Shown: positions 2,639 to 43,650, counted from the first letter of the stretch. The stretch: 64,000 nucleotides of DNA from an uncultured Candidatus Bathyarchaeia archaeon (GCA_964623205.1 CAZUQX010000006.1:45354-109353), one strand, 5' to 3'. Made by a program: numbers and translations. Notes: generated from the letters alone by a model not told the origin.

Positions 2639-2650
2639 ATGCGCGCGCAT
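2639..2650. repeat. Intergenic alternating-GC palindrome
   Basis: ATGCGCGCGCAT, a perfect 12-bp palindrome, lies 82 nt after the stop at 2557. Confidence 0.8.
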
Positions 2651-2729
2651 GGTAATCGTGCTTGCCAAGACAACGTTATGTCAACAAAAACACTGTTAGT
2701 CTGTTTGTAAGTTAAATGGAGGAAAAAAC

Positions 2730-3782
2730 TTGAAGATAGGTATAATAGGTTGTGGTGGAATCGCTCCTCTTCACCTGCGAGCATATCAAAAACTGAAAGA
2801 TGTCAAGGTTGTAGGGTTATGCGATCTAAATCTAGAGAAGGCTCGGAATCTCGCAGCACAGTTCAAAATCGAGAAGACCTTTAGAGGCTACTGGGAGATG
2901 TTTGAAAAAGAAGAATTAGATTTGGTTGATATATGTACTCCGGTTATGACCCATGCTCAAATAGTCTGTGATGCAGCTAAAGCCGTTCCAGCAATTCTAG
3001 TGGAAAAGCCAATGGCGCTCAATGTCCCTGATTGTGATAAGATGATAAAAGAAGTGGAAAAGCATGGAAGTAAACTTTGCATAGGTCATAACCAGATTTT
3101 CTCTCCGAATGTTCAAAAGGCAAAATCTATAGTAGACTCAGACGCGTTTAATTTGTTTTGCTTCAGAACTACCCAAAAAGAAAGTTATGAGATACTTAAA
3201 GCACAAAAGTTAGCGCCAGCATGGAATGTTTCACCTACCCATGGTGGAATTCTATGGGAGGTCTGCTGTCACCTAGCCTATCTTCAGCTGCATTTCTTGC
3301 CGGATATCAAAGAGGTCTATGCAGTTGGCAACAAAGTAAAGTATCCAGTCTACGATGATTTTGCGGTACTTCTGCGAACAACAGAAGAACGTTTTGGCAT
3401 AATTGAACTTTCATGGCTGTCACACGAGACTGAAACAGTTTATGAACTAAGGGATACTAGTGGAAGAAGAATGCAAATTCACTGGGAATATGACTATTTC
3501 TTAGAGAACAATGGAAAGCCTCCCTACACTGTTGGTAATGTAATAAGAGGTTTTTGTGCAGATGAAAAACGGAATTTGCATAAATGGTACAATTTTGTAT
3601 CATGTTATCTTCATAAGGGGAAGTTATTACCTACATCTAATCTTATTAGTAGCTACATCAATTCCATAAAAAGGGATTTACCTTCACCCGTTTCACCAGA
3701 ACATGGAAGAAACACTGTAAATCTCCTAGAGTGTATCAAAAAGTCTTTAGATGAGAAGCGATCTGTGACAGTGAAGGGGTAA
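2730..3782 (+). CDS. Gfo/Idh/MocA-family NAD(P)-dependent (sugar) oxidoreductase
   Basis: N-terminal Rossmann motif 'MKIGIIGCGGIAPLHLRAY' and 'ILVEKPMA'. The TTG start sits behind GGAGG. Confidence 0.8.
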   Translation: MKIGIIGCGGIAPLHLRAYQKLKDVKVVGLCDLNLEKARNLAAQFKIEKTFRGYWEMFEKEELDLVDICTPVMTHAQIVCDAAKAVPAILVEKPMALNVPDCDKMIKEVEKHGSKLCIGHNQIFSPNVQKAKSIVDSDAFNLFCFRTTQKESYEILKAQKLAPAWNVSPTHGGILWEVCCHLAYLQLHFLPDIKEVYAVGNKVKYPVYDDFAVLLRTTEERFGIIELSWLSHETETVYELRDTSGRRMQIHWEYDYFLENNGKPPYTVGNVIRGFCADEKRNLHKWYNFVSCYLHKGKLLPTSNLISSYINSIKRDLPSPVSPEHGRNTVNLLECIKKSLDEKRSVTVKG

Positions 3783-3810
3783 GGTGCTGTTTCATTCGTT
3801 AAAAAAAGAG

Positions 3811-3820
3811 GTGCGCGCAC
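3811..3820. repeat. Intergenic alternating-GC palindrome
   Basis: GTGCGCGCAC, a perfect 10-bp palindrome, lies 29 nt after the stop at 3782, between convergent genes. Confidence 0.8.
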
Positions 3821-3883
3821 GGTTGTGGGTGGGGATATTATCCATGTTGTGAATAATATAATTATCGAATCATTTATTTCATC

Positions 3884-5188
3884 TTAAGGCGTTAATTCGA
3901 GTGTTAAAGGATGAGGATAAGGATAAGGCGTAAAAATAAATCCGTCATCTTCCATGTTTGGTGCACGAAGGAAGTAGTCAACATTTTCAACATAATCCAA
4001 GCTAATCCCCCAATTTTCACTGTTACCCCAAATATAACTGTCATGGACTAAACATTTAGTTGGTTCTGGATTGTCCCAACTTCCACCAACAAGAGTCCAA
4101 TATGAACCATCATTTGTGTTACCAGTGATTATTGATGCTCCACCACGTTGACGAATAGCCTCATAGTTATATCCATCTTCGCAGTTAAGAAATGTGTTAC
4201 CGTAAACTTCTATTGCTCTGGTTCCAACAGCATCGTATGTTCCGTGAGCGTCTACGTCACCGAAACCGAAACTTGAATCAATAGTATTGTATCTGAAAAC
4301 ATAATGATAACCGTCACCTGAAGCAACACAATGTCTCCATTTGCTGAAGTAGTTGTCTTCAATGAATGTTGTGTAGCTAGTATAATGACCAAAAACGTTA
4401 GTTACATCATCATCCCAATATTCCGCATGAACTTTACCAAGCTGGATAGCATAATCAACCATTCCTGATGCACCATACGGCTCAGGAACACTGTTTGTTG
4501 TAACGAACCTATTGTGGTCAATGACTCCATTGCAGTAAGTTCTTCCTGCACCGTCTACATCTCCGTACCATCCAGCCCAAATGCCTCCGCCAGAAAGCTC
4601 ATAGAATCCACAATGGTCTACTCGATAGTCCATAACATCAGAAAAGATTACTCCTTTTGAACACATATAATCAATGGAATAATCATGCACTCTTTCTCCA
4701 ATAATGCGTATGTTAGCAAACCGTGTCGTTATACTTGAATCGGCATCTCCATAAAAGTAGAACCATGATGAACCTTGAATACTTGGGTGCAATTCTGGAA
4801 TAAGCCATGAACATCTAAGAGTTGTAGCCCAAGATGTAGGTATCCCATCTGAGCCTAACGTTGGCGATGCACCAATAATATTTACTCCAGCAGGAACCAT
4901 AACAAGTCCATAATCTCCCACACCATACCACTGACCCACAGGAGTAAAATCGAAAGTTCCAGCAGGAATATACACTGTGCCTATACCGCCATGTGCTACA
5001 ATCCAGTCTACTGCCTCTTGAATGTCTCTTGCTGAACCACTTGCTGCAGTCACACTCGCAATTGATATTTGACCACTACTTGTCAGAATGATACTGCTTG
5101 TCAACGAAGAGACCACAGGATGTATGAAAAGAGTCCCAGCAAGTACCGTTAAAACCACGATTATCGGCCAAAACTTGCTTTTACGCAA
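3884..5188 (-). CDS. Secreted right-handed beta-helix (pectate-lyase-fold) protein, probable glycan-active enzyme
   Basis: N-terminal signal or anchor 'FWPIIVVLTVLAGTLFI'. 'IQEAVDWIVAHGGIGTVYIPAGTFDF' is typical of pectate-lyase-superfamily N-termini. The protein is rich in Gly/Asn/Asp repeats. Confidence 0.5.
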   Translation of the reverse strand: MRKSKFWPIIVVLTVLAGTLFIHPVVSSLTSSIILTSSGQISIASVTAASGSARDIQEAVDWIVAHGGIGTVYIPAGTFDFTPVGQWYGVGDYGLVMVPAGVNIIGASPTLGSDGIPTSWATTLRCSWLIPELHPSIQGSSWFYFYGDADSSITTRFANIRIIGERVHDYSIDYMCSKGVIFSDVMDYRVDHCGFYELSGGGIWAGWYGDVDGAGRTYCNGVIDHNRFVTTNSVPEPYGASGMVDYAIQLGKVHAEYWDDDVTNVFGHYTSYTTFIEDNYFSKWRHCVASGDGYHYVFRYNTIDSSFGFGDVDAHGTYDAVGTRAIEVYGNTFLNCEDGYNYEAIRQRGGASIITGNTNDGSYWTLVGGSWDNPEPTKCLVHDSYIWGNSENWGISLDYVENVDYFLRAPNMEDDGFIFTPYPYPHPLTLELTP

Positions 5189-5510
5189 TAACCTCGTTTC
5201 TCCAATATTCTCTTATAACCTAAGGGTTAAACTTTTTCGATTCTGTGTAATAATGTTCACATGTTCTTCAAGTAAATATACACTATGGTATATAATAAAT
5301 ATTTTGTCTTAAGAGACCATAAATGAGTGGGATGACCAAAAAATTATTAGCAAAGATAGCCAACTCGCCTTTCAGAGATTATTCTTACAATGTAATACTA
5401 CGTATCGGGGCTAGAATATTTACAAAAATATTTTCAAGTCGCGGGAATAGCTAGCTAACTTGTTATTTTCCCACATTTAGTAATTTTGACGATGCCAAAA
5501 GGGCGTTGAG

Positions 5511-6713
5511 GTGAAACAGAGCTTGCGTGTTCTTTTTCTTTCGGTTGGTGATCCTTTTGCGGGTGGATCTGGCGTGGGGACACATCTAAGTGGTCTTTCT
5601 CGATCTCTTAGCAAGTTAGGTTGTGAAGTACATATATTGGCTTTGAACTCGAGAAACACTGATCGGATTGTTAATGGAGTTCATATGCATTATCTTAATC
5701 CTTTTTTTAACATACCTCTTAACATTCCATTAGTTAAAGGCTTAATTTTTAATTTTCTGTGTTTTAGAGAAGTTAATAGGTTATGCAGTAAATATAAGAT
5801 AGATATTGTTCATGGTCAGAGTCCTTCAAGTTACGGATACGCAATATTACGTAGAGGTGATGTACCGTTTGTTGTTACTCTACATGCCACATCGTTCGGT
5901 GAAATCGAAGCATGCCTTGATGTACATCTTTCGTTCTTAAACAAAAATTTTATCATTGAAGCTGTATCTGAAATGTTATTGACTTTTCTAACTTATATAG
6001 AGTATAAATGCGCTGACAAGGTTATAGGGGTCAGCAAAGCTACTGCTGAGGAAGCAGCAAGATTTTACCATTTATCTAAAGAGCGTATTGTGGCTATTTA
6101 CAATGGAATAGATTTGCCAAGTTTTACTGATTTTCGAGTAGAAAATGAAAAAGAAGAGCATACAATTTTGTCTGTGGGCAGGTTTACATGGAGGAAGGGG
6201 TTTAAGTATTTGATCGAGGCGATACCTAATGTTTTGTCAGAATATCCCGATGCCAAACTACTTTTAGTTGGTGATGGTGACCAAAGGCCGTCTTTGCAAC
6301 GGCATGTTAGGAAGCTTGGAGTCGAAAATTCTGTGCTTTTGTTGGGCAAGGTTTCATTACAAAAACTTTATTCCTTGTATTGTAAGGCAAGTGTATACGT
6401 TCATCCAGCCATATACGAGCCCTTAGGTATCACAATTCTGGAGGCGATGAGTATGGGAAAGCCAGTCGTAGCAACAAAGATTGGAGGGATACCCGAAATA
6501 GTCACAGATGGAGTGGAAGGGTTATTAGTTGAGCCTGGGAACAGTTTGCAGATTGCGAGGGCTATAAATAATCTTTTTTCAGATTCATCGTCCAGAAGAA
6601 GATTTGGAGTAAATGCGAGGGAAAGAGTTGAGACCGAGTTTACATGGGAAGCAATTGCCCAAAAAACCCTTGAATTTTACACGAAGTTACTAAATGATGG
6701 GAAAAATGACTAG
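5511..6713 (+). CDS. GT4 (group-1) glycosyltransferase
   Basis: 'EPLGITILEAMSMGKPVVATKIGGIPEIVTDGVEGLLVEP' is the GT4 E-x7-E region. An alternative TTG start at 5523 lies 8 nt after GAGGTGA. Confidence 0.85.
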   Translation: MKQSLRVLFLSVGDPFAGGSGVGTHLSGLSRSLSKLGCEVHILALNSRNTDRIVNGVHMHYLNPFFNIPLNIPLVKGLIFNFLCFREVNRLCSKYKIDIVHGQSPSSYGYAILRRGDVPFVVTLHATSFGEIEACLDVHLSFLNKNFIIEAVSEMLLTFLTYIEYKCADKVIGVSKATAEEAARFYHLSKERIVAIYNGIDLPSFTDFRVENEKEEHTILSVGRFTWRKGFKYLIEAIPNVLSEYPDAKLLLVGDGDQRPSLQRHVRKLGVENSVLLLGKVSLQKLYSLYCKASVYVHPAIYEPLGITILEAMSMGKPVVATKIGGIPEIVTDGVEGLLVEPGNSLQIARAINNLFSDSSSRRRFGVNARERVETEFTWEAIAQKTLEFYTKLLNDGKND

Positions 6714-6754
6714 CGTGCTCACCAAGGTTTATTTGCGTGCACACCTTGCAGCTG

Positions 6755-6768
6755 CTGCGCGCGTGCAG
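6755..6768. repeat. Intergenic alternating-GC motif
   Basis: CTGCGCGCGTGCAG lies 42 nt after the stop at 6713. Confidence 0.7.
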
Positions 6769-6827
6769 ACTGTAACAACTTGATATACGCACTGATTTGC
6801 TAGACGATAGGTGGGGATAGAGAAGCT

Positions 6828-8078
6828 TTGGATATTCTTCACGTGGTCGCTTTATATCTCCCCTCAGTTGGTGGAACAGAAATTCACACTCGTGAATTGT
6901 CCATTGAGCTTGCAAGGCTTGGGCATCAGGTTTCAATTTTCACAACCGATGCAGTATATCTTAGTGACATGTTTCCTAAAATCGGATATAAAACCCAATG
7001 CTTGGGAGAAGCAGTCTTCACTGATTCCAACACTGTTGTTTACCGCTTCCATATAACCAACTCTTTGTTTGTAGCTTTTGTTATAAAGTGTTTGAGTGTA
7101 GCTTGTGATAGCATTGGAAATTTAGGACTATTCCAGTCAGATGTCTCCAATTATGTTACGGCTTTGCAAAACTCACCTTTTGTTCCAAAACTGTACTTCA
7201 AGTTGATCAAATCAACCCACATTGATGTTGTTAATAGTACACCGTTTCCTTTTGGTTACTTGCTGTTTCTGAAAAAAATATGCGAAAGAAAGCGGATTCC
7301 TTTCATAGTAACTCCAAGGGCACATACTATGTCATGGCTTTACGCACAGTCTTTTTTGTTGAAAACAGCGAGAGAATCAAACGGGGTAATAGCTTTAACG
7401 GAACATGAAAAGGCGTTTTTCGTTGAAAAAGGAGTATCCAATGATAAGATTTTTGTTACAGGTATTGGTATTCACCCCGAAAGTTATCAGAAAGGTGATT
7501 CTGTCTCATTTAAGGCAAAATACGGAATTTCTCAGGATTCTAAAATTATATTGTTTATTGGAAGAATAGATGAAGGTAAGGGCGTTGGGCTTTTACTTCG
7601 AAGCATGGAAATTGTTTGGAAAAGAATACCAGATGTTTATCTCGTTCTTCTAGGCAGATCTACAGAAGGAACATCAATGATAAGAGATCTTGTTCAGGAT
7701 GAGAAGAGAATTATAATCTTACCCGACGCTAATGAAAGAACAAAAAACGATGCGTTGTCTTCCTCGGATTTTCTTGTCCTTCCGTCAATTTACGAGTCTT
7801 TTGGAGGAGTCTTCTTAGAGGCATGGTCAGCAGGAAAACCTGTCATAGGCTCTAGAACACCAGCAATAAGCTGTGTTGTGGACGATATGGTTGACGGATT
7901 ATTAGTGTCTCCAAAAGAGAAGAGTGAATTAGCAGAGAAGATAATTTATCTTTTGGAGAATGAGGATGAAGCTAAGAGAATGGGCGAGAGAGGCAAAGAA
8001 AAGGTTCTAAGAAACTATACATGGGAGATTATAGCCAAAAAAACACTCGAAGTGTATGAACATGTATCCAAGAAGTGA
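6828..8078 (+). CDS. GT4 (group-1) glycosyltransferase
   Basis: 'YESFGGVFLEAWSAGKPVIGSRTPAISCVVDDMVDGLLV', plus the N-terminal 'MDILHVVALYLPSVGGTEIH'. Confidence 0.85.
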   Translation: MDILHVVALYLPSVGGTEIHTRELSIELARLGHQVSIFTTDAVYLSDMFPKIGYKTQCLGEAVFTDSNTVVYRFHITNSLFVAFVIKCLSVACDSIGNLGLFQSDVSNYVTALQNSPFVPKLYFKLIKSTHIDVVNSTPFPFGYLLFLKKICERKRIPFIVTPRAHTMSWLYAQSFLLKTARESNGVIALTEHEKAFFVEKGVSNDKIFVTGIGIHPESYQKGDSVSFKAKYGISQDSKIILFIGRIDEGKGVGLLLRSMEIVWKRIPDVYLVLLGRSTEGTSMIRDLVQDEKRIIILPDANERTKNDALSSSDFLVLPSIYESFGGVFLEAWSAGKPVIGSRTPAISCVVDDMVDGLLVSPKEKSELAEKIIYLLENEDEAKRMGERGKEKVLRNYTWEIIAKKTLEVYEHVSKK

Positions 8079-8153
8079 TACACGTAGCGAGAGCATAGAA
8101 TAGGGAGAAGACAAAGAATTGGTCAAACAGTTTGCATCAAGAGGGGTTAATTG

Positions 8154-9221
8154 ATGGAACTCGATAGAAATATTAGAGTTTCATATTTCACACATCCAGT
8201 CGCCTTTAACATCTTCGGCGGGGCTGAAATCCAGATACTGAAGACAAAAATGTATCTGGAAAAGTTGGGAAATTCGTCTATTAAACTGTTTGATGCCTTC
8301 CATGATAACATAGAAGATTATGATATACTTCATAATTTCCAAATGAGTTCAGAATCTCTTCCCTTGTTCAGACTAGCTAAGCTAAAAGGGAAAAAAACTG
8401 TTCTTTCGCCTATTTACTGGGAGTCATCTCCTCCGATTTTGCATAAAATTGGTCCTACAGCTTTTTTCCGACTTTATTCGAATTGGAAGACCTACAGAAT
8501 TCCTGCATTTTACGAATTGTATCCATTTAAAGATTTCCTTGAATTGGCAGACATTGTGCTGCCGAATTCTCGAATCGAGGCTGCACTCCTATCAGTCAGA
8601 TTTCGCGTGAATCCAAAAAAGTTTTTTGTTGTTCCTAACGGGGTAGACAAGAGATTCTTGGAAGCAAAACCTGATTTATTCGTTGAAAAATATGGTGTGA
8701 AAGACTTTATATTATATGTAGGCAAAATAGAAGAGAGAAAAAATGTGTTAGCACTTCTGAAAGTTTGCAAAGAAATTGAACTACCAACAATAATAATCGG
8801 GGATGGGCATCCATTTAAAATAGATTACTTTATGAAATGCAGAAAGATCATCGAATCCAGTCGTAGCATACAATTTATTAGTTCTCTTTCGCATGATTCT
8901 GAAGAACTACGTTCAGCTTATGGCGCTGCAAAGGTTTTTGTTTTGCCAAGCCTCTATGAAACACCTGGTTTGTCTGCTTTGGAAGCTGGATTGGCGGGCT
9001 GTAATTTGGTCATCACTAGGGGAGGATCCACTACAGAATACTTTAAAAATCATGCGTTATATATAGATCCAGCTTCAAAAGAAGATATAAAGAAGAAAAT
9101 TTTGGAAGCCTACGAGAGACCAAAGAATAACGTACTCAAGGAACATATACTAAATAACTATACGTGGGAAAAAACGGCTAAAAGAACTCTGGATGCGTAT
9201 AATTTAACGCGCGCGCAATAA
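8154..9221 (+). CDS. GT4 (group-1) glycosyltransferase
   Basis: 'YETPGLSALEAGLAGCNLVITRGGSTTEYF'. The ATG at 8154 sits behind GAGGGG. Confidence 0.8.
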   Translation: MELDRNIRVSYFTHPVAFNIFGGAEIQILKTKMYLEKLGNSSIKLFDAFHDNIEDYDILHNFQMSSESLPLFRLAKLKGKKTVLSPIYWESSPPILHKIGPTAFFRLYSNWKTYRIPAFYELYPFKDFLELADIVLPNSRIEAALLSVRFRVNPKKFFVVPNGVDKRFLEAKPDLFVEKYGVKDFILYVGKIEERKNVLALLKVCKEIELPTIIIGDGHPFKIDYFMKCRKIIESSRSIQFISSLSHDSEELRSAYGAAKVFVLPSLYETPGLSALEAGLAGCNLVITRGGSTTEYFKNHALYIDPASKEDIKKKILEAYERPKNNVLKEHILNNYTWEKTAKRTLDAYNLTRAQ

Positions 9222-9243
9222 GGCATTAAATGCGCGCGCGCAT
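9208..9243. repeat. Pair of (GC)n tracts able to form a 9-bp all-GC hairpin across a stop codon
   Basis: CGCGCGCGC (9208-9216) and GCGCGCGCG (9232-9240) are separated by 15 nt. The second tract lies inside the 14-bp palindrome ATGCGCGCGCGCAT (9230-9243). The stop codon is at 9219-9221. Confidence 0.8.
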
Positions 9244-9390
9244 AAAAGTAGGCGCCAAAGTCTTTATCTTTGTATAAGAATCTGGAAAAATTTTATAAAT
9301 TTTCAATAATTAAACTACTGTTAAGTTAATATGTTCAACGGTTATGTTGTCTAAATGGTTTCGTTAGATTGTAAAAGGGGTTAAAAATTA

Positions 9391-12282: not shown

Positions 12283-12302
12283 CATTCGGTCTCAAAATGC
12301 TG

Positions 12303-12312
12303 TGCGCGCGCA
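12303..12312. repeat. Intergenic alternating-GC palindrome
   Basis: TGCGCGCGCA lies 21 nt after the stop at 12282. Confidence 0.8.
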
Positions 12313-12478
12313 GCTTATTTATTCGGTAGTTGAGTCCAGATTTTTAGAAAAAGAAAACCGTGAAGGCAATCGACCTCTTGTCATGGCCCCTTTTCCAAAT
12401 CGCTTCACTGCCATGCTACACTTTATGTCCAGAAGATTGCCTGCACAAATGCTGGATCCATTCGAGTATTTGCTGGAA

Positions 12479-12487
12479 GTGCGCGCT
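12479..12487. repeat. Intergenic alternating-GC motif
   Basis: GTGCGCGCT, in the 12283-12569 spacer. Confidence 0.6.
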
Positions 12488-12569
12488 CAAAAACTTAGGC
12501 ATGATGCAAACCGAGTAGAAACACGCTCAGCAAGCGCAACAAGAATACCGTGGAAAAGAAGTGTATAAC

Positions 12570-34416: not shown

Positions 34417-34644
34417 CCTATTATCCCAATTTAACGTTATATGTTCTTAATCGGTATTTAAATGCCAATAGTGAAATCTTCTAGAAAATCATGTGCAAAA
34501 ACTATCGCATTCCTTGGTTTGCTTTTGCGTTAGGCGATCATTCATGTTAAGCATAGAAAATTAGTCTATATTTTCTATAAACAAAATCCATTAAAAGTTA
34601 CATATAAAAAATAAATAAACTGGAAGTAAGGACGGAGAGAATTT

Positions 34645-35240: not shown

Positions 35241-35250
35241 TCGCGCGCAT
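35241..35250. repeat. Intergenic alternating-GC motif
   Basis: TCGCGCGCAT lies 15 nt after the stop at 35226 and is preceded by TTTTT. Confidence 0.75.
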
Positions 35251-35370: not shown

Positions 35371-35646
35371 TTACCCTGGCAGTAGCCATTTGAGGGGTAT
35401 GTCTTGGTATGTTCCGTCTGGGAGGGTTCTTCGGATAGTGAGAGGAAGTGTCTTCGTATCTAGCTCCAAGAGCGCGATGTCAATAGGACCGGCGCGGGCT
35501 TCTGGAGACTGGATAATGATGGGAGCGCCCATAGCAATCTGTAGGGCCCTAGCTCCTACTATCCGAGCTCTCTCAAACCGAGTCAGTTTAGAAGGCCCGA
35601 TGGAAACTTCGGTCTTCTCGCTCGTTTCTCTAGAACGCTCCTGCAC
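35371..35646 (-). CDS. rpoK: DNA-directed RNA polymerase subunit K (Rpo6)
   Basis: '[23 protein letters not shown]' is the Rpo6/RpoK core. The only in-frame starts are GTG 35646 and GTG 35691, and both overlap the thermosome 3' end. Confidence 0.85.
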
Positions 35647-37306
35647 CTGGAGGTCCCATTCCCATTCCGCCCATTCCTCCCATTCCACCACCGCCTGGTG
35701 GCATTGGAGGAGTCTTCATTTTTCCTGAAGCTATTACATCATCAATCTTTAGGATCAAAGTCGCGGCTTCGGTACAGGATTTGATAATCTGCTTTTTAAC
35801 CACTATGGGCTCGAAGACACCAATTTTTTCCATGTCTCCAGCTTTGCCAGTGTTGACGTCAACTCCTGCCCAAACTTCTCCCTTCTCATGGTGAGCTCTT
35901 AATTCAGATATAATGTCAATAGGATCAAGTCCAGCGTTCTCGGCTAACGTGGTGGGTATTGCTTCAAGAGCCTCGGCGAACTGCATGACCGCGAGTTGTT
36001 CTCTTCCAGGAAGCGACTCGGCGTATTCCCTGAGAACTTTTGCGACCTCCATTTCTGGTGCACCGCCTCCAGCCATAATCTTTGGTTCCTCAACCACATC
36101 TCTTACAACACAGAGGGCATCATGTAATGAACGTTCTGCCTCGTCAACTATTCTCTCGGTTCCTCCGCGTATGAGAATTGTGACCGCCAGCGGATTTTTG
36201 CATCCTTCTACGAAGGTCATCTTGTCGTCGCCGATTTTCCGTTCTTCTACGAGTTGGGCGTAACCTAGGTCTTTCGCGTTCAAGTCATCTATGTTTGTGA
36301 CAACTTTTGCGCCTGTTGCCTTAGCTAAAGCTTCCATATCTGATTTTTTTACTCGGCGAACCGCTAAAACATTCTTCCTAGAGAGGAAGTGTTGAGCTAG
36401 GTCGTCAATGCCTTTTTGGCAGAGGATGACTGTTGCGCCTTTGGCGACAAGCTTCTCCACCATATCTTTTATCATATTCTCTTCTTGTTTGAGGAAAGCG
36501 TCCATTTGCTCTGGGCTTTCAATATTTATTTTTGCGTCGAACTCGGTTTTCTCAATCTCAAGGGCAGTATCTATCAAAACGATTTTTGCTTTCTCCACCC
36601 TTTTTGGCATGCCGGAGTGAACAACCTCTTTGTCAAGAACTATGCCGTTTATGAGTTTTGTATCTGTAAGGGACTCACCAGGTTTTTTCTCCACATTGAC
36701 GTTGTCAATATCCACTTTATAGCCGCCTCCAGTCTTTACGGCAACTTGGAGAATCGCCGAAGTAGCAATCTCACCTAGATATTCCCTACTTCCTGCCACC
36801 AGCTTGCTAGCCATGGAGGTCATGGCAACTTTCTCGATGGCCTTTTTGTCGGTGGGACTGATTGTTATCGCGATTTTTTCTAGAGTTTCTAGCGCTTTGT
36901 CAGCGGCTTTTCGGTATCCGTCGATGATGACTGTTGGATGAACATTTTTGTCTATGAGAGTTTCAGCTTTTGAAAGAAGTTCTCCTGCTATTATTACAGA
37001 ACTGGTTGTGCCGTCTCCCACTTCGTCGTCTTGGGTTTTGGCAACCTCCACCATCATCTTGGCGGCGGGGTGTTGAATATCCATTTCGTCTAGAACTGTG
37101 CGTCCGTCGCTGGTTATAGTTACGTCTCCGAAACTGTCTACCAGCATCTTGTCCATTCCTCTTGGTCCAAGGGCGCTCTTTACTGCTTCAGCTACTATTT
37201 GCGCAGCCATTATGTTGGCGTGCTGGGCTTCTTGCCCTCTTGACCGGGATGCTCCTTCACGGAGTATGAGAACAGGTGTTCCAGCTAATCCAGAAGACAA
37301 TCTCAA
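35630..37306 (-). CDS. ths: Thermosome subunit (group II chaperonin)
   Basis: '[39 protein letters not shown]', 'VGDGTTS' and the C-terminal '[11 protein letters not shown]' tail. The TTG start sits behind AAGGAG. Confidence 0.95.
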
Positions 37307-37359: not shown

Positions 37360-37372
37360 CATTGCTGTGGAG

Positions 37373-37423
37373 GGAACTGTTTCGTCTGCGTCGGATTGGT
37401 AATCTGGTTTTTTTCGTCGGATA
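37373..37423. repeat. Left terminal inverted repeat of the IS
   Basis: GGAACTGTTTCGTCTGCGTCGGATT... The first 25 nt are identical to the reverse complement of 39774-39798. Overall about 46 of 51 positions match. It contains two CGTCGGAT sub-repeats. Confidence 0.85.
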
Positions 37424-37657
37424 GTTGGGTTACGAAGAGTCTTTATTGTTAACACAAGTTTTAAGCTGTAAAATGGGTATAGAGAAATTAGTGAGCAAAA
37501 AGGGGGATAATTAAGTTGGGTGAGAAAATTAAAAACACTTTGTCAAAAATAGAAGCAGAAATTAAAAAAGAATCGAGAGTAGCACGTGGTTATGGATATT
37601 ATCAAAAAGTAATTTTGGTTGATAGAGTTATGGAAATTATTGAAAAACACTTTGAAA

Positions 37658-38800
37658 CTATCTAAGTCCTTTTTTACTTGCATTCTGGATTAGAGTTTTC
37701 CACTTGTTCTTGCCTTCTATCTTTATTCCGCATGCATCGGCAGGTGTTTTCCCATCTAGTCCTTCGTGTTCTCTAATAAAATTGTGGTATATTTGATAGC
37801 CTCTAAGAATTGGCGTATCTTTGTTTTTCAATCCTCTCATGACCTTTTCTCTGTCTCGGATTTCACCGTTTAGGCGTTCCATTTTGTTGTTGTTCATGTC
37901 ACCTTGAATCTTGATATGACGAATATGCTTGGTTCTTGGGTAGCGAAGAGTTCTAAATTCTTTTTTGTATGCGATATTGTAAGACCTGAGTCCATCGGTT
38001 ATCAGGGTTTCAGGTTTCTTTCCAGTTACCTTTTTGGCTAGTTGAAAGAGTGTTCTTGCGTCATGTTTGTATTTGGTTTCAGCAACTTCTTGAGCAATCC
38101 AGTAACGAGTTTCATCATCCATTATGGCAAAGACGTATTTCATGTCGCCTTTGAATTTCATCCAAAGCTCATCTGCTCTCCAAGTGTCAGACACATTAGG
38201 AGTTAGTTTCTCGATGTATTTTTCCATTAGTCCGATGTACTTCTTTATCCACTTGTAAACTGTAGAATGAGCAACTTCTACTCCAAGAAGCCTAAGCGAT
38301 TTCTGAGTATTCCTAAGTGATTCTCCGCTAAAATAAAGTTGCATAGCTGTCGTTATCGCCTGTGGGTTGTGCTTCATGCGTTCAAATCCAACATTGAAGG
38401 AGAAGTATTTCCTACAGTTTCGGCAATAGAACTTCTGTATCTCTCCATGCTTGTTATGGCGAACCCCATCCTTCACTATGTCGGTTGATTTACAGTAAAT
38501 GCAAGAAGAAACAGTCGTTATTGGAGTTATCCGCTTGGACTCAACCTTTTTCCTTAACGCTAAACTAAATTCCACTGCAAAGATGTGTTTGCACTTGACA
38601 TGGCGGTAAATGTGGTCGGGGCAACTGCACATCCAACCAATGCTAGATTTCAAAACTTCGTATTTGCCGTTACCCGATTGGCTCTTAACCTCAAAAACAG
38701 ACTCCTCAAAAATCGCCACTTGACCACGAAGATGAGCTATCTCTTTTCCCCGTTCTTCACGAGCTTTAAGTTGTGCAGTTGTTATCATTCCATTCACCAC
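37658..38800 (-). CDS. DDE transposase, IS6-family-like, with N-terminal SWIM-type zinc finger
   Basis: The SWIM-like motif is 'CSCPDHIYRHVKCKHIFAV'. The DDE core comprises 'WRADELWMKFKGDMKYVFAIMD', 'LITDGLRSY' and 'NNNKMERLNGEIRDR'. Confidence 0.8.
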   Translation of the reverse strand: MVNGMITTAQLKAREERGKEIAHLRGQVAIFEESVFEVKSQSGNGKYEVLKSSIGWMCSCPDHIYRHVKCKHIFAVEFSLALRKKVESKRITPITTVSSCIYCKSTDIVKDGVRHNKHGEIQKFYCRNCRKYFSFNVGFERMKHNPQAITTAMQLYFSGESLRNTQKSLRLLGVEVAHSTVYKWIKKYIGLMEKYIEKLTPNVSDTWRADELWMKFKGDMKYVFAIMDDETRYWIAQEVAETKYKHDARTLFQLAKKVTGKKPETLITDGLRSYNIAYKKEFRTLRYPRTKHIRHIKIQGDMNNNKMERLNGEIRDREKVMRGLKNKDTPILRGYQIYHNFIREHEGLDGKTPADACGIKIEGKNKWKTLIQNASKKGLR

Positions 38801-38921
38801 ATATCTCTCTATCTCTATAAATACACAAGTAAGTATATAAGCTTTCCCCTATATCTCCACAAACCTAAAACTTTATATGTGGATAGCTATACAAGTGTTA
38901 ATGGTGATAGATTTGGGAAAG

Positions 38922-39077
38922 ATGAATATAGTGCTAAGTGATGAATTGGAAGAAAAATTCCGAAAAGTTGTCTTTCAAAGAAAAGGAATGAAAAAAGGCA
39001 ACATCAGCAAAGCATTGGAAGAAGCAATTAAACAATGGATGGACTATTTCCCATCAGAAAAATGCAAGAGGGAATAA
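38922..39077 (+). CDS. Ribbon-helix-helix (CopG-like) small protein, IS passenger
   Basis: 'MNIVLSDELEEKFRKVV...KGNISKALEEAIKQWM' fits a beta-strand plus two helices. I take the internal ATG at 38922 as the start. Confidence 0.5.
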   Translation: MNIVLSDELEEKFRKVVFQRKGMKKGNISKALEEAIKQWMDYFPSEKCKRE

Positions 39078-39078
39078 T

Positions 39079-39570
39079 GTGAAAAACAATGGTAAAGAGA
39101 TTAAACCTGAGGCGACCAAATCAGGCACATCCCAACAACAAGAGAACACTCTCTTTTCTGCAAAAGAAGTTAAGGTGATAGTAAAAGATTTTGTAGCAGC
39201 TTTTATTTCTGGGCAAGTTAAAATCAACTTTCCTGATTCAAAAAGCATTTTTGATTTGCGCAAAGAAAAAGGAGAAAAAACGACTTCGGAAGAGGCATGT
39301 AAGCAAATGTTAGAAATTAAGACATATTTTCTTAAAAATGTTGGAATATGTGCCGGAACTACGAAGGCTACTCCAGAGGAACAGGAAAAGGCTCTTAATG
39401 AGGTGTTTTCAGATTTAATCGCATATCGTATCAGTAATCGAATAGATGGTGTCTTTATTGAATATGCATTGGAAGCTAGAATAAAGAGACTTGAAGAGGG
39501 CATAGATAAAGTAAACAATCTCGTAAAGGAAATTGTCGAGTGGATTATGAACCAAGTTGTTGACAAATAG
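39079..39570 (+). CDS. Hypothetical protein, IS passenger
   Basis: The GTG start lies 1 nt after the previous stop. The composition is K/E-rich and looks like a real protein. The antisense ORF 39054-39599 is S/L/F-rich and was rejected. Confidence 0.5.
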   Translation: MKNNGKEIKPEATKSGTSQQQENTLFSAKEVKVIVKDFVAAFISGQVKINFPDSKSIFDLRKEKGEKTTSEEACKQMLEIKTYFLKNVGICAGTTKATPEEQEKALNEVFSDLIAYRISNRIDGVFIEYALEARIKRLEEGIDKVNNLVKEIVEWIMNQVVDK

Positions 39571-39829
39571 ACTCTTTTGTCCAGAATGCAAATCTCCATT
39601 AACCCGTTATACTCGTGGAGATTATATAGAAAAAATCTGCTGGAACTGTGGGTACTATATATCTAATTCCCCAGCCTATCAGTCCAATCCAGAAATGTTC
39701 AGAAACCTAGTTCGAGATAATCCGACAAAATTTTTAAAAAAATTTCTTATCCGACGGAAAAAACCATATTTTAAATCCGACGCAGACGAAACAGTTCCCT
39801 GTGGAGGGTTCTGTAAAGTCTTCGGCTGA
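39557..39829 (+). CDS. Small zinc-ribbon protein, IS passenger; its 3' end reads through the right TIR
   Basis: 'CPECKSPL...CWNCGYY'. The ORF continues across the TIR and TSD to a stop at 39829. Confidence 0.4.
   Translation: MLTNRLFCPECKSPLTRYTRGDYIEKICWNCGYYISNSPAYQSNPEMFRNLVRDNPTKFLKKFLIRRKKPYFKSDADETVPCGGFCKVFG
39748..39798. repeat. Right terminal inverted repeat of the IS
   Basis: This is the reverse complement of the left TIR, ending ...AATCCGACGCAGACGAAACAGTTCC. Confidence 0.85.
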
Positions 39830-40046
39830 CGGGAATTCCTGTGAAAATCGGTTCATTGAAAATTTTTGTAAAAAAGGACTTAACAGAATCCGTTAGTAAC
39901 AAGGGTCATAATTACAAACAGAAATGTACATTCAATGGTTAAAACAAAAATAGTCAATTTGTTGTCTGAAAAACTTTTTCCAAAAATAATGTGCGGTTTT
40001 TGGATTAAATCTCTCCAGAATATCCTAAAAGTTTTCCAGATGTATC

Positions 40047-40054
40047 TGCGCGCA
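40047..40054. repeat. Intergenic alternating-GC palindrome
   Basis: TGCGCGCA lies about 25 nt downstream of the minus-strand gene that ends at 40078. Confidence 0.7.
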
Positions 40055-40077
40055 TAAAAATTTAAGTGAATGGGAAT

Positions 40078-40719
40078 TCAGATCAGGACCTCGGTTATCG
40101 GTTTAAGTAATTTTTTGAAATATTTTTTCCAAGCTAATTGCAGTTGAGCCTCTGTCTCATTAACCGGCTGTTCTACTAGAGGTAACTTTCCCTTGATGCT
40201 TGTTCCGGCTACCGCTGCTAAGTCGAACGGATCAAAATCATACTTTTTAGCCAAGTGTTCTAGTCTAAACTGTCTAAGGTCCTTTGCCCGAATCTCCCTA
40301 CCTAATAAAGGAGACAAGTTTTCACGAATTATCTTATTTATCGTTACGCGAGTCAAATCAAACTCCAATTTCTTATTTCTTAGTTTGCGTTTCGCCAGAT
40401 CGCGGGTCCATGGTTCAAAACTTGGATGGGTAGGCAAAGCAATTATCTTGTAAGAAGGAAAACTTTGGCGTCTCATTGCAAGAGCTAGAGCGATGAGTAG
40501 AACGTCTTGCTTTTTTTTGAATTTGGAAAGCCAAGACCTCATAAATATTCCATAGGGTTTTGTGGTTTGGTTCTGCAGCTCTGATGGTGTAGTTCTTGTG
40601 CATATCTCGCTAGGTCTAGCAGCTGTTAAATACAACAATTTAATAAGCTCCCCATCGCGTAGACCCAACACATGATCAACCGCCTCCCGAAACCTACAGA
40701 AATCAACAGCTTTAACCAT
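40078..40719 (-). CDS. Divergent tyrosine-recombinase-like (integrase catalytic-domain-like) protein
   Basis: 'LLYLTAARPSEI' resembles integrase box I (Arg). 'DLRQFRLEHLA' resembles a degenerate H-x-L-R-H. The canonical GH...Y region is not clear. Confidence 0.4.
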   Translation of the reverse strand: MVKAVDFCRFREAVDHVLGLRDGELIKLLYLTAARPSEICTRTTPSELQNQTTKPYGIFMRSWLSKFKKKQDVLLIALALAMRRQSFPSYKIIALPTHPSFEPWTRDLAKRKLRNKKLEFDLTRVTINKIIRENLSPLLGREIRAKDLRQFRLEHLAKKYDFDPFDLAAVAGTSIKGKLPLVEQPVNETEAQLQLAWKKYFKKLLKPITEVLI

Positions 40720-41473
40720 CTCCTGCCCCTTAGCCTATTCTTTTTTCCTTATTGATAAATATTTGCCAGTTAGATACTGACTGGCATTTCCTTATCATTT
40801 ATCGAGAAGAAAAGCCCAAAATGGAGAGAACTCGAGTATATAACTAAGTATCTATAAAGGGAGGGAAACGTTGTCTCTAAGCCAATTTTCATGGAAACCC
40901 AGAGAAAAATAAGCTACAAGGTCATCTATTGATGTAGATAGGCCTTCAGGTTTGTTGGTCTATCCCCTTATCTTTAATAATTAAATTGATATTGAAAGAC
41001 CTATAGTTTAGGCAGGGGTTTAGGTTAGGCTTCTGTTGTAAAAAGAGTGAGATGAAGTCTTTATGCAATAGAACTAGTGTGGCAAAGTAGATAGGTGCAA
41101 GTCTAGGATGTTTTTTTGATCTAGTTGAAAGGTAACTCTTCTTAGTTGGATTGTCCATTGAAAAAGATAGTGTTTGAATGGTTGCGCGTGTTGTTTGTAA
41201 AATAGTTAGGAAAGAATAGAGCATCTTTCTGTGCTTCCACAGGTAAGGCACCAACCGTTAGTTAGATCGTTTGAAATGCTGTAGTATGGGTATGTCCCGA
41301 GGTTAAACGCAAATAATTGTTTGATGGTGTGAACTTCTCCTTTTTGGTGAAGATTGTTTGAAGAAATTTGAAGCCGTGGAGAATGTTTCAATTAGAATAA
41401 GCTTATGACCGTGCGGTTCTCATTATAGTTACTTAGAAAATGAGCTGACCAGTGGGTATATCTAGACCTGAAA

Positions 41474-42820
41474 TCACTCCACGCGCTCCAACTCGAACTT
41501 CAAAGCTTTTCGTTTCTTTTTTATGCCTTTCTTTTGGTCAAGTTTTTTCTTGGCTTTGAACAATGCTTTCACGACATCCGGTTCCCGCTTGGTGAAGAGA
41601 AAGACCCCCTTAGTACGAGTTTTAGCTCCTGTCATTTCCATGCCGTATGCATGTAGATCTTCCTTCTCTACAGATTTCATGAGATCTAAAAAGGGGTCCA
41701 GTTTTTTCTGCATCTCATTTAACTGCGTTTTCACTTCATTGATTTCCTTGTCTCTATCCATCAATTTCTTCTGTGCCTCATCCAGTTCTTCTCTAAGATC
41801 TCTGATTTGCCCTACAGTTTCGCTTGAGGTTTTGGTTTCGATACTGAGATGAGGAGCTGCCAATTCTGCATACTGTTTTCTGTGGTGTTCTGGATCCATG
41901 GCTCGGTAGTGATCCTGAACTCCGACTTTGTGTCCCATCCAGAACTCGGAGAACTCTTCTCCTGCATTATGGGCATACTTCTCGAAGAATTTTCTGAGAC
42001 TGTAAAGCCTTAATTCGCTTGGCTTGCCTTCCCGAACTTCAAACTCTAATACTCCGGTTTTTTTAAGTTTTCTTGCAGTCTTATTGAATTGAGATGAAAA
42101 GGCTGCAGTTTTCAATGGAGTGTTTTTGGACCCTGATCTCACGAAGAGGTAACTGTCTCGAGTGACATTTCTGGTTTTTAAGTAGGACTTCAAATTTTGA
42201 ATGGCTTCTAAGCCAATGAAGGAAAAGTAACTATGGTATCTTCCCTTGGCTATTTCACGTGGAACATCAATTTTAACAGGACTTTCTTCCATCAAGAGCC
42301 TTTGATATTCAATATGCTTGATCTGCAACCTGCACAAGGTAACAGGTCTGAGTCCACTCTGAGCCATTACAGCATAGAATGCTCGGTCCTTTGGCAGAGA
42401 GATACTCATGATAGCAGAGATCTCTTCTCGCCTGATATCACGATTATGATACTCGAAATGTCCCTGGGCTGTTGGGATAAAACCGATGTCTATTCTGTTA
42501 TGCTTATAAAAGCTCTGCGGCACCCCCACCATGCTTCTGATTGTGCTGTCAGCTAAGCCCCTTTCTCTCAATGAGATTATCCACTCTTTAATCTCGTCTG
42601 CAATCTTGTCCCTGAATTTTCGAAGTTCATTAAAATCCTGTATGCCCTTATACTCGGCTAAAATTTCCTCTGCAGTCCTGCCAATAAACTTGAGGTATAG
42701 GTCAATGCACCGACGATAGTTGACTTCCGTGGCTTTAGACCCGCTGCCCGAATAGGCTACACTAATCAGCCATTTTTCGATCGGATCATGCTTTAGTTGC
42801 GTCAAATCGTCCTGACCCAC
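41474..42820 (-). CDS. Tyrosine recombinase / phage-type integrase with C-terminal coiled-coil extension
   Basis: 'SGLRPVTLCRLQIKHI' (Arg), 'LYSLRKFFEKYA' and 'FWMGHKVGVQDHYRA' (His/Tyr region). The C-terminal tail is K/E-rich. Confidence 0.75.
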   Translation of the reverse strand: MGQDDLTQLKHDPIEKWLISVAYSGSGSKATEVNYRRCIDLYLKFIGRTAEEILAEYKGIQDFNELRKFRDKIADEIKEWIISLRERGLADSTIRSMVGVPQSFYKHNRIDIGFIPTAQGHFEYHNRDIRREEISAIMSISLPKDRAFYAVMAQSGLRPVTLCRLQIKHIEYQRLLMEESPVKIDVPREIAKGRYHSYFSFIGLEAIQNLKSYLKTRNVTRDSYLFVRSGSKNTPLKTAAFSSQFNKTARKLKKTGVLEFEVREGKPSELRLYSLRKFFEKYAHNAGEEFSEFWMGHKVGVQDHYRAMDPEHHRKQYAELAAPHLSIETKTSSETVGQIRDLREELDEAQKKLMDRDKEINEVKTQLNEMQKKLDPFLDLMKSVEKEDLHAYGMEMTGAKTRTKGVFLFTKREPDVVKALFKAKKKLDQKKGIKKKRKALKFELERVE

Positions 42821-43065
42821 CTAAATGTAATGAATGGGGAGGAATGGGATATATAAAAGTTTACTGCAAAGCAAAGATAAGATATAAAGTTTACTGGTGC
42901 AATTTCTTTTCCAAAGTGGAATATCGGCAAAAAACGGCGAGAAAGAACACATGAGTCATAACCCTTACAAACTGCATTGCGTGGTGGGCATATTTTTGGT
43001 GAATAATTGGGTAATAAAAGCTAATAGGAACAATAGCAAAAATTAATCAAGAACGGGTGTCTGTT

Positions 43066-43434
43066 ATGAGTATTTCTCGTATACCCATCAGATTCGTTGT
43101 AGAGGGCATAGGTAAGGCGGAGGGGGAACTTGTTCGTATTCGCTCTCCGAGGACTGTAGATGCTATAACCAGAGCGCTTCCGATTGAAGGTCTGGCAGCC
43201 CTGTGGCAAGAAGAAGTTTACTTTGATATCCCTGTGAAGATGGGGAGTGAAAAGGCTTCACCTACAGTGGAGAAGGGAGCCCTTGCTTACTGGCCAATGG
43301 GAAAGGCTTTCTGCATCTTCTGGGGTGAAACACAGCCTTACAGTCCCGTCAACATTATTGGTAACGTAACCAAGAATCTAGAATTGTTCGAACGTGTGAA
43401 GAGTGGAACAAAAATCATTGTAGAAAAAAGATAG
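43066..43434 (+). CDS. Cyclophilin-like-fold protein (TM1367-like family)
   Basis: 'IPIRFVVEGIGKAEGELVRIRSPRTVDAI...GALAYWPMGKAFCIFWGETQPYSPVNIIG' matches my recollection of the small cyclophilin-like archaeal family. Confidence 0.55.
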   Translation: MSISRIPIRFVVEGIGKAEGELVRIRSPRTVDAITRALPIEGLAALWQEEVYFDIPVKMGSEKASPTVEKGALAYWPMGKAFCIFWGETQPYSPVNIIGNVTKNLELFERVKSGTKIIVEKR

Positions 43435-43642
43435 TTGCCCCTCTCAAGAAGGCGGATTGGCTGAGATCACAGTTCTTGCATATGCTGTCTAATACTTGTA
43501 CAATGTCATTTGACTGGTTGATCGTAACGTTTTTTATTTAATATCTACTACTTGTAGTATTACGATAACTATTACTTTTACTGGTGCAATTACTTGTAGT
43601 ATTAGTTTTAATATTTGATATTTTTAGTGAATTGTCTTTTTC

Positions 43643-43650
43643 CGCGCGCC
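43643..43650. repeat. Intergenic alternating-GC motif
   Basis: CGCGCGCC lies about 10 nt downstream of the minus-strand gene that ends at 43660. Confidence 0.7.

Follow-up and report, generated by a model that had tools for sequence, protein, structure and literature searches.

Comparison of the window, a 64,000-nt stretch of DNA from an uncultured Candidatus Bathyarchaeia archaeon, with related loci leads us to favor, at a probability of roughly 55%, the reading that its (GC)3-5 tracts mark the places where, in certain Bathyarchaeia lineages, gene-scale DNA rearrangements were joined (loci L081-L159 are metagenome loci whose taxonomy is not established). The relatives suggest that the tracts mark the joins left by deletions and insertions rather than transcription stop signals. 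From the aligned sequences we conclude that they would be lineage-specific filler at gene-scale insertion and deletion junctions of a mosaic surface-glycan island, and probably also re-usable microhomology. In this window, the tracts appear to punctuate a mosaic island of surface-glycan and archaeosortase genes as well as other strain-specific insertions. The window's own 14 tracts are putative junctions by extension from the relatives, since the closest ones found reach only ~67% amino acid identity (DUF2341 protein) or ~90% nucleotide identity (in conserved stretches that lack tracts).

Alternating-GC tracts in the window

Fourteen tracts of 6-10 nt are intergenic or overlap a stop codon; a further one is within a gene. 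The 14 GCGCGC loci listed in the first-pass annotation were recovered, shifted by 1-3 nt in the case of overlapping hexamers, as were all the palindromes quoted there: ATGCGCGCGCAT, GTGCGCGCAC, ATGCGCGCGCGCAT, TGCGCGCGCA and TGCGCGCA. Two independently assembled Logan assemblies (L160 and L161, run SRR14802572) match the window at 100% identity, also in the tracts, and a third contig of the same run (L163) encodes a DUF2341 protein identical to that of the window.

With gene calls that are mostly ORF heuristics, non-coding DNA makes up ~16% of the window, close to the ~15% estimated previously. Over the whole window there are 20 overlapping GCGCGC hits, compared with 3.3 ± 1.95 in dinucleotide-preserving shuffles. 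Intergenic tracts number 13 against 0.87 ± 0.91 expected (maximum of 5 in 500 such shuffles), a 15-fold excess. The claims of strong intergenic enrichment and of a palindromic motif hold; we also agree that the motif matches no described archaeal element. The accompanying idea of purging from genes does not stand: the coding count is 2 tracts versus 3.9 ± 1.95 by codon permutation (P = 0.24). The scarcity of tracts in genes is what codon usage predicts, and the anomaly is the intergenic excess, not a coding depletion.

A compositional accident, in which codon usage bars CG-rich hexamers from genes and slippage makes the repeats in spacers, would indeed fit the coding scarcity. As a source of the intergenic excess, however, it is refuted by the shuffles, and we give it almost no probability: none of the other dinucleotide repeats (AT, AC, GT, AG, CT) is enriched in the window, and the intergenic lengths, 6-11 nt overall, bunch at 6-9 nt (mode 8) instead of decaying geometrically. 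Another of the proposed roles starts from GCGCGC being the recognition sequence of a type II enzyme, and regards the tracts as a restriction-modification or methylation target (BssHII-type), with selection on the site and purging from genes. GCGCGC-containing tracts do outnumber CGCGCG-only tracts. However, the coding count equals the codon-permutation expectation, a 15-fold intergenic excess is the opposite of avoidance, the lengths spread over 6-11 nt, and the CGCGCG-only tracts in relatives are intergenic as well; we consider this role very unlikely.

The leftmost tract, (GC)4 in ATGCGCGCGCAT (2641-2648), lies in the tandem spacer between a PIG-L deacetylase gene (end 2557) and a GFO/IDH/MocA oxidoreductase gene (start 2730), and GCGCGC in GTGCGCGCAC (3813-3818) occupies the convergent spacer 3783-3883, 30 and 65 nt from its two stop codons. 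GCGCGCG (6757-6763) separates two GT4 glycosyltransferase genes, 43 nt past a stop. As had been described, a tract overlaps the final codons of the glycosyltransferase gene 8151-9221, namely CGCGCGCGC at 9208-9216; it can form a hairpin with (GC)5 at 9232-9241, 10 nt past the stop at 9221 (-25 kcal/mol versus a shuffle mean of -20, z = -1.9). The next (GC)4 (12304-12311) is located 21 nt past the stop of the 963-aa DUF2341 gene and is the sole tract in a terminator-like context. It is followed by GCGCGC at 12481-12486, ~95 nt upstream of the UDP-GlcNAc 2-epimerase ATG and within an 88-aa ORF (12302-12568) that has no Pfam match and was skipped by an independent gene caller. The degenerate version TGCGTGCA occurs twice, at 6734 and 13704, and is likewise intergenic: the first copy, an alternating purine-pyrimidine run TGCGTGCACAC (6734-6744), lies 21 nt past the stop at 6713, and the second, GTGCGTGCACA (13703-13713), lies 27 nt past the epimerase stop and is the point from which the gene order of the window departs from L081, L084 and L086.

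Further to the right, GCGCGCGCG (23495-23503) begins 3 nt past the stop at 23491, and CGCGCGC (28554-28560) lies in the convergent spacer 28333-28626. A two-gene segment (33811-35226) that is missing from L006, L012 and L005 has CGCGCGC on its left side (33632-33638) and on its right side (35242-35248), the latter 15 nt past the stop at 35226 and also 122 nt past the stop of an rpoK-like gene (35371, minus strand). GCGCGC in the context TGCGCGCA occurs at 33754-33759, 51 nt past the stop of the gene 33811-34416 (minus strand), and at 40048-40053, 24 nt past the stop of the gene 40078-40719 (minus strand) and within a 5.6-kb segment missing from L001 and L002. CGCGCGC at 43643-43649, 10 nt past the stop of a TrmB-like gene (43660-44430, minus strand), is near the left end of a 7.9-kb segment missing from the same two relatives. 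Inside this TrmB-like ORF lies the lone coding (CG)3 tract, which had been placed near 43903: CGCGCG in CACGCGCGTG (43900-43905), the only tract wholly inside a gene and consistent with chance. It is the rightmost of all, and 44-64 kb contains none. Eleven of the 13 intergenic tracts lie within 85 nt of a stop codon, in line with the proximity reported earlier.

The tracts of the window are found in segments that relatives lack and in the glycan island, where relatives have the genes in shuffled order. The tract-free right-hand 20 kb includes stretches conserved in L001 and L002, and where it aligns with relatives (~51.4-59.2 and 63-64 kb) the sequence is conserved.

Deletion joints and homology breakpoints

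Comparison with relatives adds two observations to the first-pass annotation: tracts arise de novo at deletion junctions and coincide with homology breakpoints. In three independent locus pairs with flanks ~94-99% identical, 0.9-2.3 kb of gene sequence is swapped for (GC)n of ~6-11 nt, and the longer allele of every pair has no tract at either boundary. In the first pair, L106 has exactly GCGCGC where L092 has 2314 bp (7056-9369) with one PMT_2 gene, one GT2 gene and the first (5') half of a 146-aa ORF, between flanks of 98.7% and 96.9% identity; the leftover of the 146-aa gene in L106 is truncated and frameshifted. In the second, L013 7655-8588, i.e. most of a four-CBS-domain gene, is replaced by GCGCGCGCG(C) in L015, which retains the final 33 nt of that gene. 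In the third, whose flanks are 98% identical, L107 has GGCGCGCGCGC in place of the ~1.1 kb that in L090 includes a gene for a 335-aa NAD-dependent epimerase. All three joints, the only polarised events found, hold bases that are missing from both boundaries of the unrearranged allele, as is characteristic of end-joining filler, and their flanks contain no template for it. The ancestral alleles have no sites at the deletion boundaries, and therefore cutting and religation at restriction sites cannot have made these joints. About ten similar indels from lineages poor in tracts are free of (GC)n.

The ends of BLAST homology point in the same direction. Homology ends within -1 to +3 nt of 11 of 129 intergenic tracts, versus 1.95 ± 1.32 expected from random placement within the same spacer (none of 2000 permutations gives as many as 11). 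For example, a gene of L083 that is 92% identical to its L082 counterpart has tracts on both sides, 1-2 nt from the homology ends, homology between L083 and L084 begins at a tract, and that between L053 and L048 ends at one. L083 also has two tracts that closely enclose a HicA/HicB toxin-antitoxin cassette. Against the junction reading, some junctions in the window itself are tract-free, namely both ends of the IS element (37372, 39803) and three other boundaries (43010, 43435, 51357).

Distribution among relatives

Tract density varies across lineages from about zero to almost one per spacer, and tracts are absent from the close relatives L001-L003 and from Ca. Bathyarchaeum tardum (L017). 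In tract-rich relatives, they occupy convergent, tandem and divergent spacers at 3.4, 2.5 and 2.0 per kb, respectively, with a weak bias toward stop codons; in tandem spacers, 40 are stop-proximal versus 23 (p = 0.04). The 3'-proximal position noticed in the window therefore survives as a mild bias, but divergent (5'-5') spacers carry tracts too (18 of 49 in tract-rich loci), which speaks against the proposed terminator or 3'-end element. Six of eight tracts fold as RNA no more stably than shuffles (z -0.4 to +0.7), and a hairpin-plus-T scan of window positions 1-20000, which covers 7 of the 14 tracts, matches only 12299-12314. We rejected an intrinsic transcription terminator, as the tracts scanned and folded have no consistent T-run or hairpin and tracts are not limited to the 3' ends of transcription units.

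A broader functional reading is that the tracts are punctuation between transcription units, kept by selection in each spacer as a site for an abundant dimeric protein, a Z-DNA-prone torsional insulator or a terminator aid. At least one tract is found in ~30% of spacers in tract-rich loci and in nearly all spacers of L083. At 74-92% identity, L081, L083 and L084 share a tract 30 nt ahead of the epimerase ATG, one tract is common to L013 and L015 although its flanks diverge, and two tracts separate the DUF2341 gene from the epimerase gene in the window and in L082 alike. The tracts shared in position (L081/L083/L084 and L013/L015) look like maintenance or re-use, not like a decaying neutral scar. 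The mild stop-codon bias also fits, and so does the sequence, which is palindromic and belongs to (GC)n, a classic Z-DNA former. As for the suggested dimeric-protein or Z-DNA role, the palindrome is real, and all tracts have the alternating purine-pyrimidine sequence, ideally (CG)n with n of 3-4 or more, that could adopt the Z form in vivo. Positive evidence for that role was not found, however, and the flanks are featureless except for the adjacent base. Selection for punctuation leaves the de novo tracts at deletion joints that cut through genes unexplained; tract length varies, flanking determinants are absent and there is no consistent hairpin or T-run. A general function would also not be dispensable, yet the right-hand 20 kb of the window, L001-L003 and L017 have no tracts. 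On balance we regard functional punctuation as unlikely.

Sequence and structure around the tracts

Little is shared beyond the core. BLAST of the ±100-nt flanks returned orthologous matches only, and base composition stays flat along the flanks apart from position ±1, where alternating runs are often one base longer, with T before and A after the tract. We rejected a MITE or REP-like repeat family, since the flanks share nothing past the core and lack terminal inverted repeats. An archaeal promoter element of the BRE/TATA box type was rejected as well: the TATA/BRE test gave no positional signal or TATA spacing and no A/T box at a fixed offset, and at least 7 of 8 A/T bases on the better side were found for 27% of tracts versus 17% of random spacer positions.

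Tract ends are G...C in 60 cases and C...G in 15. Together with the palindromic sequence and the modal length of 8, readable as 4 + 4, these mostly G...C ends would suit excision footprints of a cut-and-paste transposon with inverted terminal repeats starting GCGC, in which the bases left from both ends make the palindrome. Footprints of Tc1/mariner and hAT transposons are palindromic, and the tracts are lineage-specific and associated with rearrangements. However, no tract pair is extended inward by an inverted repeat, and no resident (GC)n-ended element was found in ~2 Mb of loci. The IS element of the window has unrelated terminal repeats, GGGAACTGTTTCGTCTGCGTCGG, and the deleted segments are without element-like ends, so that insertion, adjacent deletion and excision would be needed each time. 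We consider transposon footprints improbable.

Possible course of tract formation

If the tracts are join marks, they might form and spread as follows. A break would be repaired, or a foreign gene cassette joined, with a short self-complementary alternating G/C run added at the joint; such filler is seen at deletion joints, and we infer it at insertion joints. We suggest that both ends could gain (GC)n 3' tails that anneal like universal sticky ends, and the excess of G...C ends is expected if both DNA ends carry the same tail. No enzyme known to us adds alternating GC to DNA ends in vivo. Existing tracts, which are all identical in both orientations and therefore able to act as microhomology, may then serve for more cassette exchange; this re-use is proposed because some breakpoints fall exactly on a tract common to both genomes. 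Finally, junctions within genes would be selected against, and tracts would gather in spacers with a mild 3' bias, presumably because a junction may directly follow a stop codon but must spare promoter room before a start.

Comparison with known systems

The joints themselves resemble end-joining filler and N-nucleotides (Ku/LigD NHEJ, polymerase-theta end joining and TdT in V(D)J), where the joint bases are foreign to both flanks. Ku/LigD NHEJ is present in bacteria and in a subset of archaea. The fillers known so far vary in sequence, are copies of DNA close by or have no more than a G/C bias, whereas the tracts are one defined self-complementary (GC)3-5 that recurs over many junctions and lineages. 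In the loci compared, no Ku, LigD or polymerase gene is linked to the tracts.

Integron cassettes resemble the arrangement in that single genes or small modules such as HicAB are enclosed by a recurring palindromic mark at which homology breaks. attC sites, however, are imperfect palindromes of 57-141 bp recombined by an adjacent IntI integrase at attI, whereas the tract mark is 6-11 bp, occurs in every orientation and spacer type, arises at gene-cutting deletions and has no linked integrase. An integron-like cassette array was rejected, as there is no structure or sequence past 6-11 nt, and the only tyrosine recombinase gene of the window (41474-42820) adjoins no tract. Mobile GC clusters of yeast mitochondria and bacterial REP/BIME or MITE elements are likewise short, GC-rich, lineage-specific palindromes in AT-rich intergenic DNA, but they span 30-150 bp with family-specific sequence and structure, and the tracts share the (GC)n core only. 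Archaeal oligo-T intrinsic terminators are comparable in that window tracts often lie shortly past stop codons; in contrast to them, the tracts have no associated T-run or hairpin and are found in the divergent spacers of relatives.

The tracts belong to the same sequence class as Z-DNA-forming (CG)n fragile sites. (CG)n reportedly causes breakage and deletion of DNA in bacteria as well as in mammalian cells, and such break-proneness fits the clustering of rearrangements at tracts. Across the prokaryotic genomes surveyed, (CG)n-type tracts are generally suppressed (PMC4060949). Unlike these fragile sites, the tracts described here are 15-fold enriched in spacers and appear to be created at joints, not merely broken there.

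Results

Alternating-GC tracts are concentrated in the spacers of the window. GCGCGC gives 20 overlapping matches where dinucleotide-preserving shuffles of the window predict 3.3 ± 1.95, a pattern search finds 14 matches of CGCGCG, and the matches merge into 15 maximal alternating-GC tracts of 6-10 nt. On a greedy ORF map (a heuristic yielding 59 genes and 84% coding DNA), 13 of the 15 are intergenic, against 0.87 ± 0.91 expected and a maximum of 5 in 500 dinucleotide-preserving shuffles of the intergenic DNA. The other two are a tract at 9208-9216, which overlaps the final codons of a gene that ends at 9221, and one at 43900-43905 inside a TrmB-like gene. The tracts stand at the positions given in the first-pass annotation, whose observation of recurrent intergenic GCGCGC is confirmed. 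An independent gene caller applied to the identical Logan contigs gave the same picture, leaving uncalled an 88-aa ORF that spans 12481. Degenerate copies, TGCGTGCA, at 6734 and 13704 both lie just 3' of stop codons, and no tract occurs past 43.9 kb in the window.

It had been proposed that the motif, as a methylation or restriction target, is purged from genes. The two coding tracts, however, fit codon usage (3.9 ± 1.95 expected by codon permutation, P = 0.24), so that the anomaly is an approximately 15-fold intergenic excess with the genes unpurged. General dinucleotide slippage was rejected because AT, AC, GT, AG and CT repeats show no enrichment in the window. General purine-pyrimidine alternation was likewise rejected, since the excess of alternating runs in spacers (about 2.6-fold for runs of 10 nt or longer) is mostly due to the GC tracts.

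Tract density depends on the lineage, being close to zero in the related loci L001-L003 and in Ca. Bathyarchaeum tardum (L017), high in bin1445 (L018, L053), Bin52 (L015, L048) and Kmv02 (L013, L068), and very high in the metagenome loci with the nearest relatives of the epimerase gene of the window. In two of the latter, L082 and L083, 14 tracts fall within 2-3 kb of non-coding sequence, many of them 0-20 nt away from a stop codon. The taxonomy of the metagenome loci (L081-L159) is not established; the L082 contig carries a DUF2341 homologue, other members of whose family are annotated as Bathyarchaeota.

In a pool of 23 tract-rich loci, the density is 0.15 tracts per kb in coding DNA and 2.5, 3.4 and 2.0 per kb in tandem, convergent and divergent spacers, respectively. 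The coding sequence of the short rpoK-like gene contains ATGGGCGCGCCC in some relatives and yields false intergenic tracts if short genes are missed. Within tandem spacers of the pool, 40 tracts lie closer to the stop codon and 23 closer to the start codon (p = 0.04). The suggested link to gene 3' ends is therefore real but weak, and the tracts are not confined to these ends. Intergenic tracts pooled from tract-rich loci number 33, 27, 36, 17 and 6 at lengths of 6, 7, 8, 9 and 10 nt, a non-geometric spectrum with a hump at 6-9 nt and a mode at 8; G...C ends outnumber C...G ends 60 to 15 (4 to 1).

The functional roles offered in the first-pass annotation, among them a terminator, a dimeric-protein site and a Z-DNA mark, are mostly unsupported. 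As hairpin or oligo-T terminators the tracts were rejected because six of eight local RNA folds do not exceed shuffled sequences in stability; in a scan of 1-20000, the hairpin-plus-T pattern is matched at 12299-12314 alone, and the 9208/9232 pair forms a strong stem, yet with z = -1.9 only. The motif should be labelled neither a terminator nor a restriction-avoidance signal in annotation. A BRE/TATA promoter element was suggested by a tract in L081, L083 and L084 that precedes the epimerase ATG by 30 nt. A/T-rich octamers do stand beside tracts more often than in controls (27% versus 17%), but with no fixed spacing and no general TATA signal. A MITE or REP repeat family is excluded by the ±100-nt flanks, which match only at orthologous sites; flank composition is flat except for the adjacent base, which tends to extend the purine-pyrimidine alternation (T before, A after). 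Nor are the tracts the ends of a resident transposon, since tract pairs in about 2 Mb of loci lack inverted-repeat extension and the terminal repeats of the window's IS element are unrelated. Neither Rfam families nor tRNAs were found in the window.

The window is archaeal, with a thermosome gene (35630-37306, minus strand), rpoK-like, archaeosortase and TrmB-like genes, and a large glycosyltransferase/DUF2341/DUF2206/flippase island at about 0.8-30 kb. All thermosome relatives are from Bathyarchaeia MAGs, the nearest at 95% amino-acid identity. Nucleotide synteny with L001 and L002 identifies 37368-43010, which holds an IS element and an integrase gene, and 43435-51357 as insertions between conserved genes, while two small genes at 33.5-35.3 kb are missing from the related loci L006, L012 and L005. 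Every tract of the window falls within the glycan island or these variable segments, and 44-64 kb, of which about 51.4-59.2 and 63-64 kb are conserved with relatives, has none. Several junctions in the window are without tracts.

Several features of this setting are recorded in their own right. The glycan island (0.8-30 kb; L163-L168) contains GT2/GT4 glycosyltransferases, DUF2341, DUF2206, UDP-GlcNAc 2-epimerase, flippase, archaeosortase and DUF7982 genes, and its content is kept while gene order differs in every relative examined. The IS element at 37372-39803 is complete, and its terminal inverted repeats are 23 bp long (GGGAACTGTTTCGTCTGCGTCGG / CCGACGCAGACGAAACAGTTCCC). Besides three small ORFs it has a gene for a DDE transposase of the IS240/IS6 type (37658-38800, minus strand), and synteny with L001 and L002 breaks off at its left end (37367). 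The 7.9-kb segment at 43435-51357, missing from L001/L002, lies between a cyclophilin-like gene and a gene ending at 51370 and carries genes for a TrmB-like regulator and for a multi-PAS histidine kinase of 1268 aa (46391-50197); neither boundary has a tract or repeat. Directly downstream of the thermosome gene is a small conserved rpoK/Rpo6-like gene (35371-35610, minus strand), with T-rich stretches 3' of it that are conserved across relatives. Unrelated to the tracts, a radical SAM protein whose N-terminus is a zinc ribbon of the HMPTM type (PF23545) is encoded at 52242-53729 (minus strand), in a conserved stretch that L001/L002 have in common with the window.

In an all-against-all BLAST of the loci, ends of homology cluster at tract edges: 18 ends lie within ±3 nt of a tract edge and just 15 further within 4-20 nt. 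A homology end abuts 11 of 129 tracts, against 1.95 ± 1.32 expected when each tract is re-placed randomly inside its own spacer, and none of 2000 such permutations reached 11. An L083 gene 92% identical to its L082 counterpart has a tract on each side, 1-2 nt from the homology ends; L083/L084 homology starts at the tract upstream of the epimerase gene, and L053/L048 homology stops at a tract. In L083, two tracts closely bracket a HicA/HicB cassette that L084 lacks.

This toxin-antitoxin pair ends an insertion of about 800 bp relative to L084 (L083 11207-12004), which starts with a duplicate, diverged to 74% identity, of the 5' end of the flippase-like gene that lies downstream, and has a degenerate GCGCGTGCGC at its left junction. 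Another insertion, of 75 nt, lies directly 3' of a stop codon (L013 733-806 versus L015 6277-6282); 16 nt in from its left end is a (GC)4 tract. The TAG on both sides of this insertion looks like a target-site duplication but may be due to chance.

Polarised tract-creating events number three only, all in relatives' loci. L092 and L106 share 98.7% identity across 6.9 kb, and in place of L092 7056-9369, which spans a PMT_2 and a GT2 gene together with the 5' half of a 146-aa ORF, L106 has GCGCGC. Neither boundary of this segment carries a tract in L092, and the truncated, frameshifted remnant of the 146-aa ORF in L106 identifies L106 as the derived deletion. Similarly, L013 7655-8588, most of a four-CBS-domain gene, is replaced by GCGCGCGCG(C) in L015, which keeps the last 33 nt of the gene. 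In L107, GGCGCGCGCGC replaces a stretch of about 1.1 kb in L090 that includes the gene for an NAD-dependent epimerase, and the joint fuses a small, truncated gene to the sequence downstream of it. Tract-poor lineages have about ten comparable indels, none of them with (GC)n, and one L013/L015 deletion has plain microhomology of 9-11 nt instead of a tract.

Discussion

In the relatives' loci, (GC)n tracts mark gene-scale insertion/deletion junctions and can arise de novo there. We consider it somewhat better than an even bet (roughly 0.55) that the tracts in general are filler at junctions, specific to certain lineages, and mark the recombination by which gene cassettes turn over. Those of the window itself are putative junctions, as no relative is close enough for a direct comparison. 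Their spacers are too diverged to align with L006, L012 and L005, the best DUF2341 homologue of the window protein is only 67% identical, and exact-protein look-ups of window proteins returned only same-sample Logan contigs, with two look-ups giving no match. L164, L165 and L168, reached through DUF2341 homologues, are tract-poor and added no junction cases.

If incoming cassettes were joined by the same process as the deletion joints, genes with tracts on both sides would be accounted for. All tracts are mutually identical in either orientation and could thus be re-used as microhomology, which would account for breakpoints exactly on tracts present in both genomes and for a tract staying in place although its neighbours differ. 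Two ends bearing the same short (GC)n 3' tail would fit both the modal length of 8 and the symmetry of the G...C form, and selection against junctions inside genes or promoter-gene gaps would lead to the spacer location and the mild stop-proximal bias. Some positional conservation, as of the epimerase-upstream tract, leaves room for a maintained function of the tracts.

A more specific mechanism is proposed only tentatively, and we regard it as rather doubtful: some Bathyarchaeia may possess a dedicated end-joining activity that tails broken or incoming ends with self-complementary alternating GC, so that any two ends anneal and ligate, leaving (GC)3-5 at each joint as portable microhomology that drives cassette shuffling. 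Such GC tailing, if true, would be a new mode of archaeal genome plasticity and horizontal gene integration.

To our knowledge, how genes are gained, lost and shuffled in uncultured archaea such as Bathyarchaeia is largely unknown, and archaeal end joining is poorly characterised. A filler of defined sequence that recurs at rearrangement joints would be a scar from which gene-scale indels could be dated and mapped directly in the sequence. It would also account for the cassette-like mosaic of surface-glycan islands and point to an enzyme that synthesises a specific sequence at DNA ends, apparently without a template.

(CG)n is a classic Z-DNA former. Its general suppression in prokaryotic genomes (survey, PMC4060949) makes the enrichment here unusual. 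Our literature searches returned no description of this motif or mechanism. The nearest known counterpart is the filler, or added N-nucleotides, seen where ends have been joined, from which the tracts differ in being a single defined self-complementary sequence that recurs across lineages. The cassette-like outcome is similar to that of integron arrays, although the tracts have neither attC structure nor a linked integrase, and the likeness to mitochondrial GC clusters and REP elements is limited to GC-rich palindromes in AT-rich spacers. GC-tailing end joining, if real, would be a natural analogue of linker tailing.
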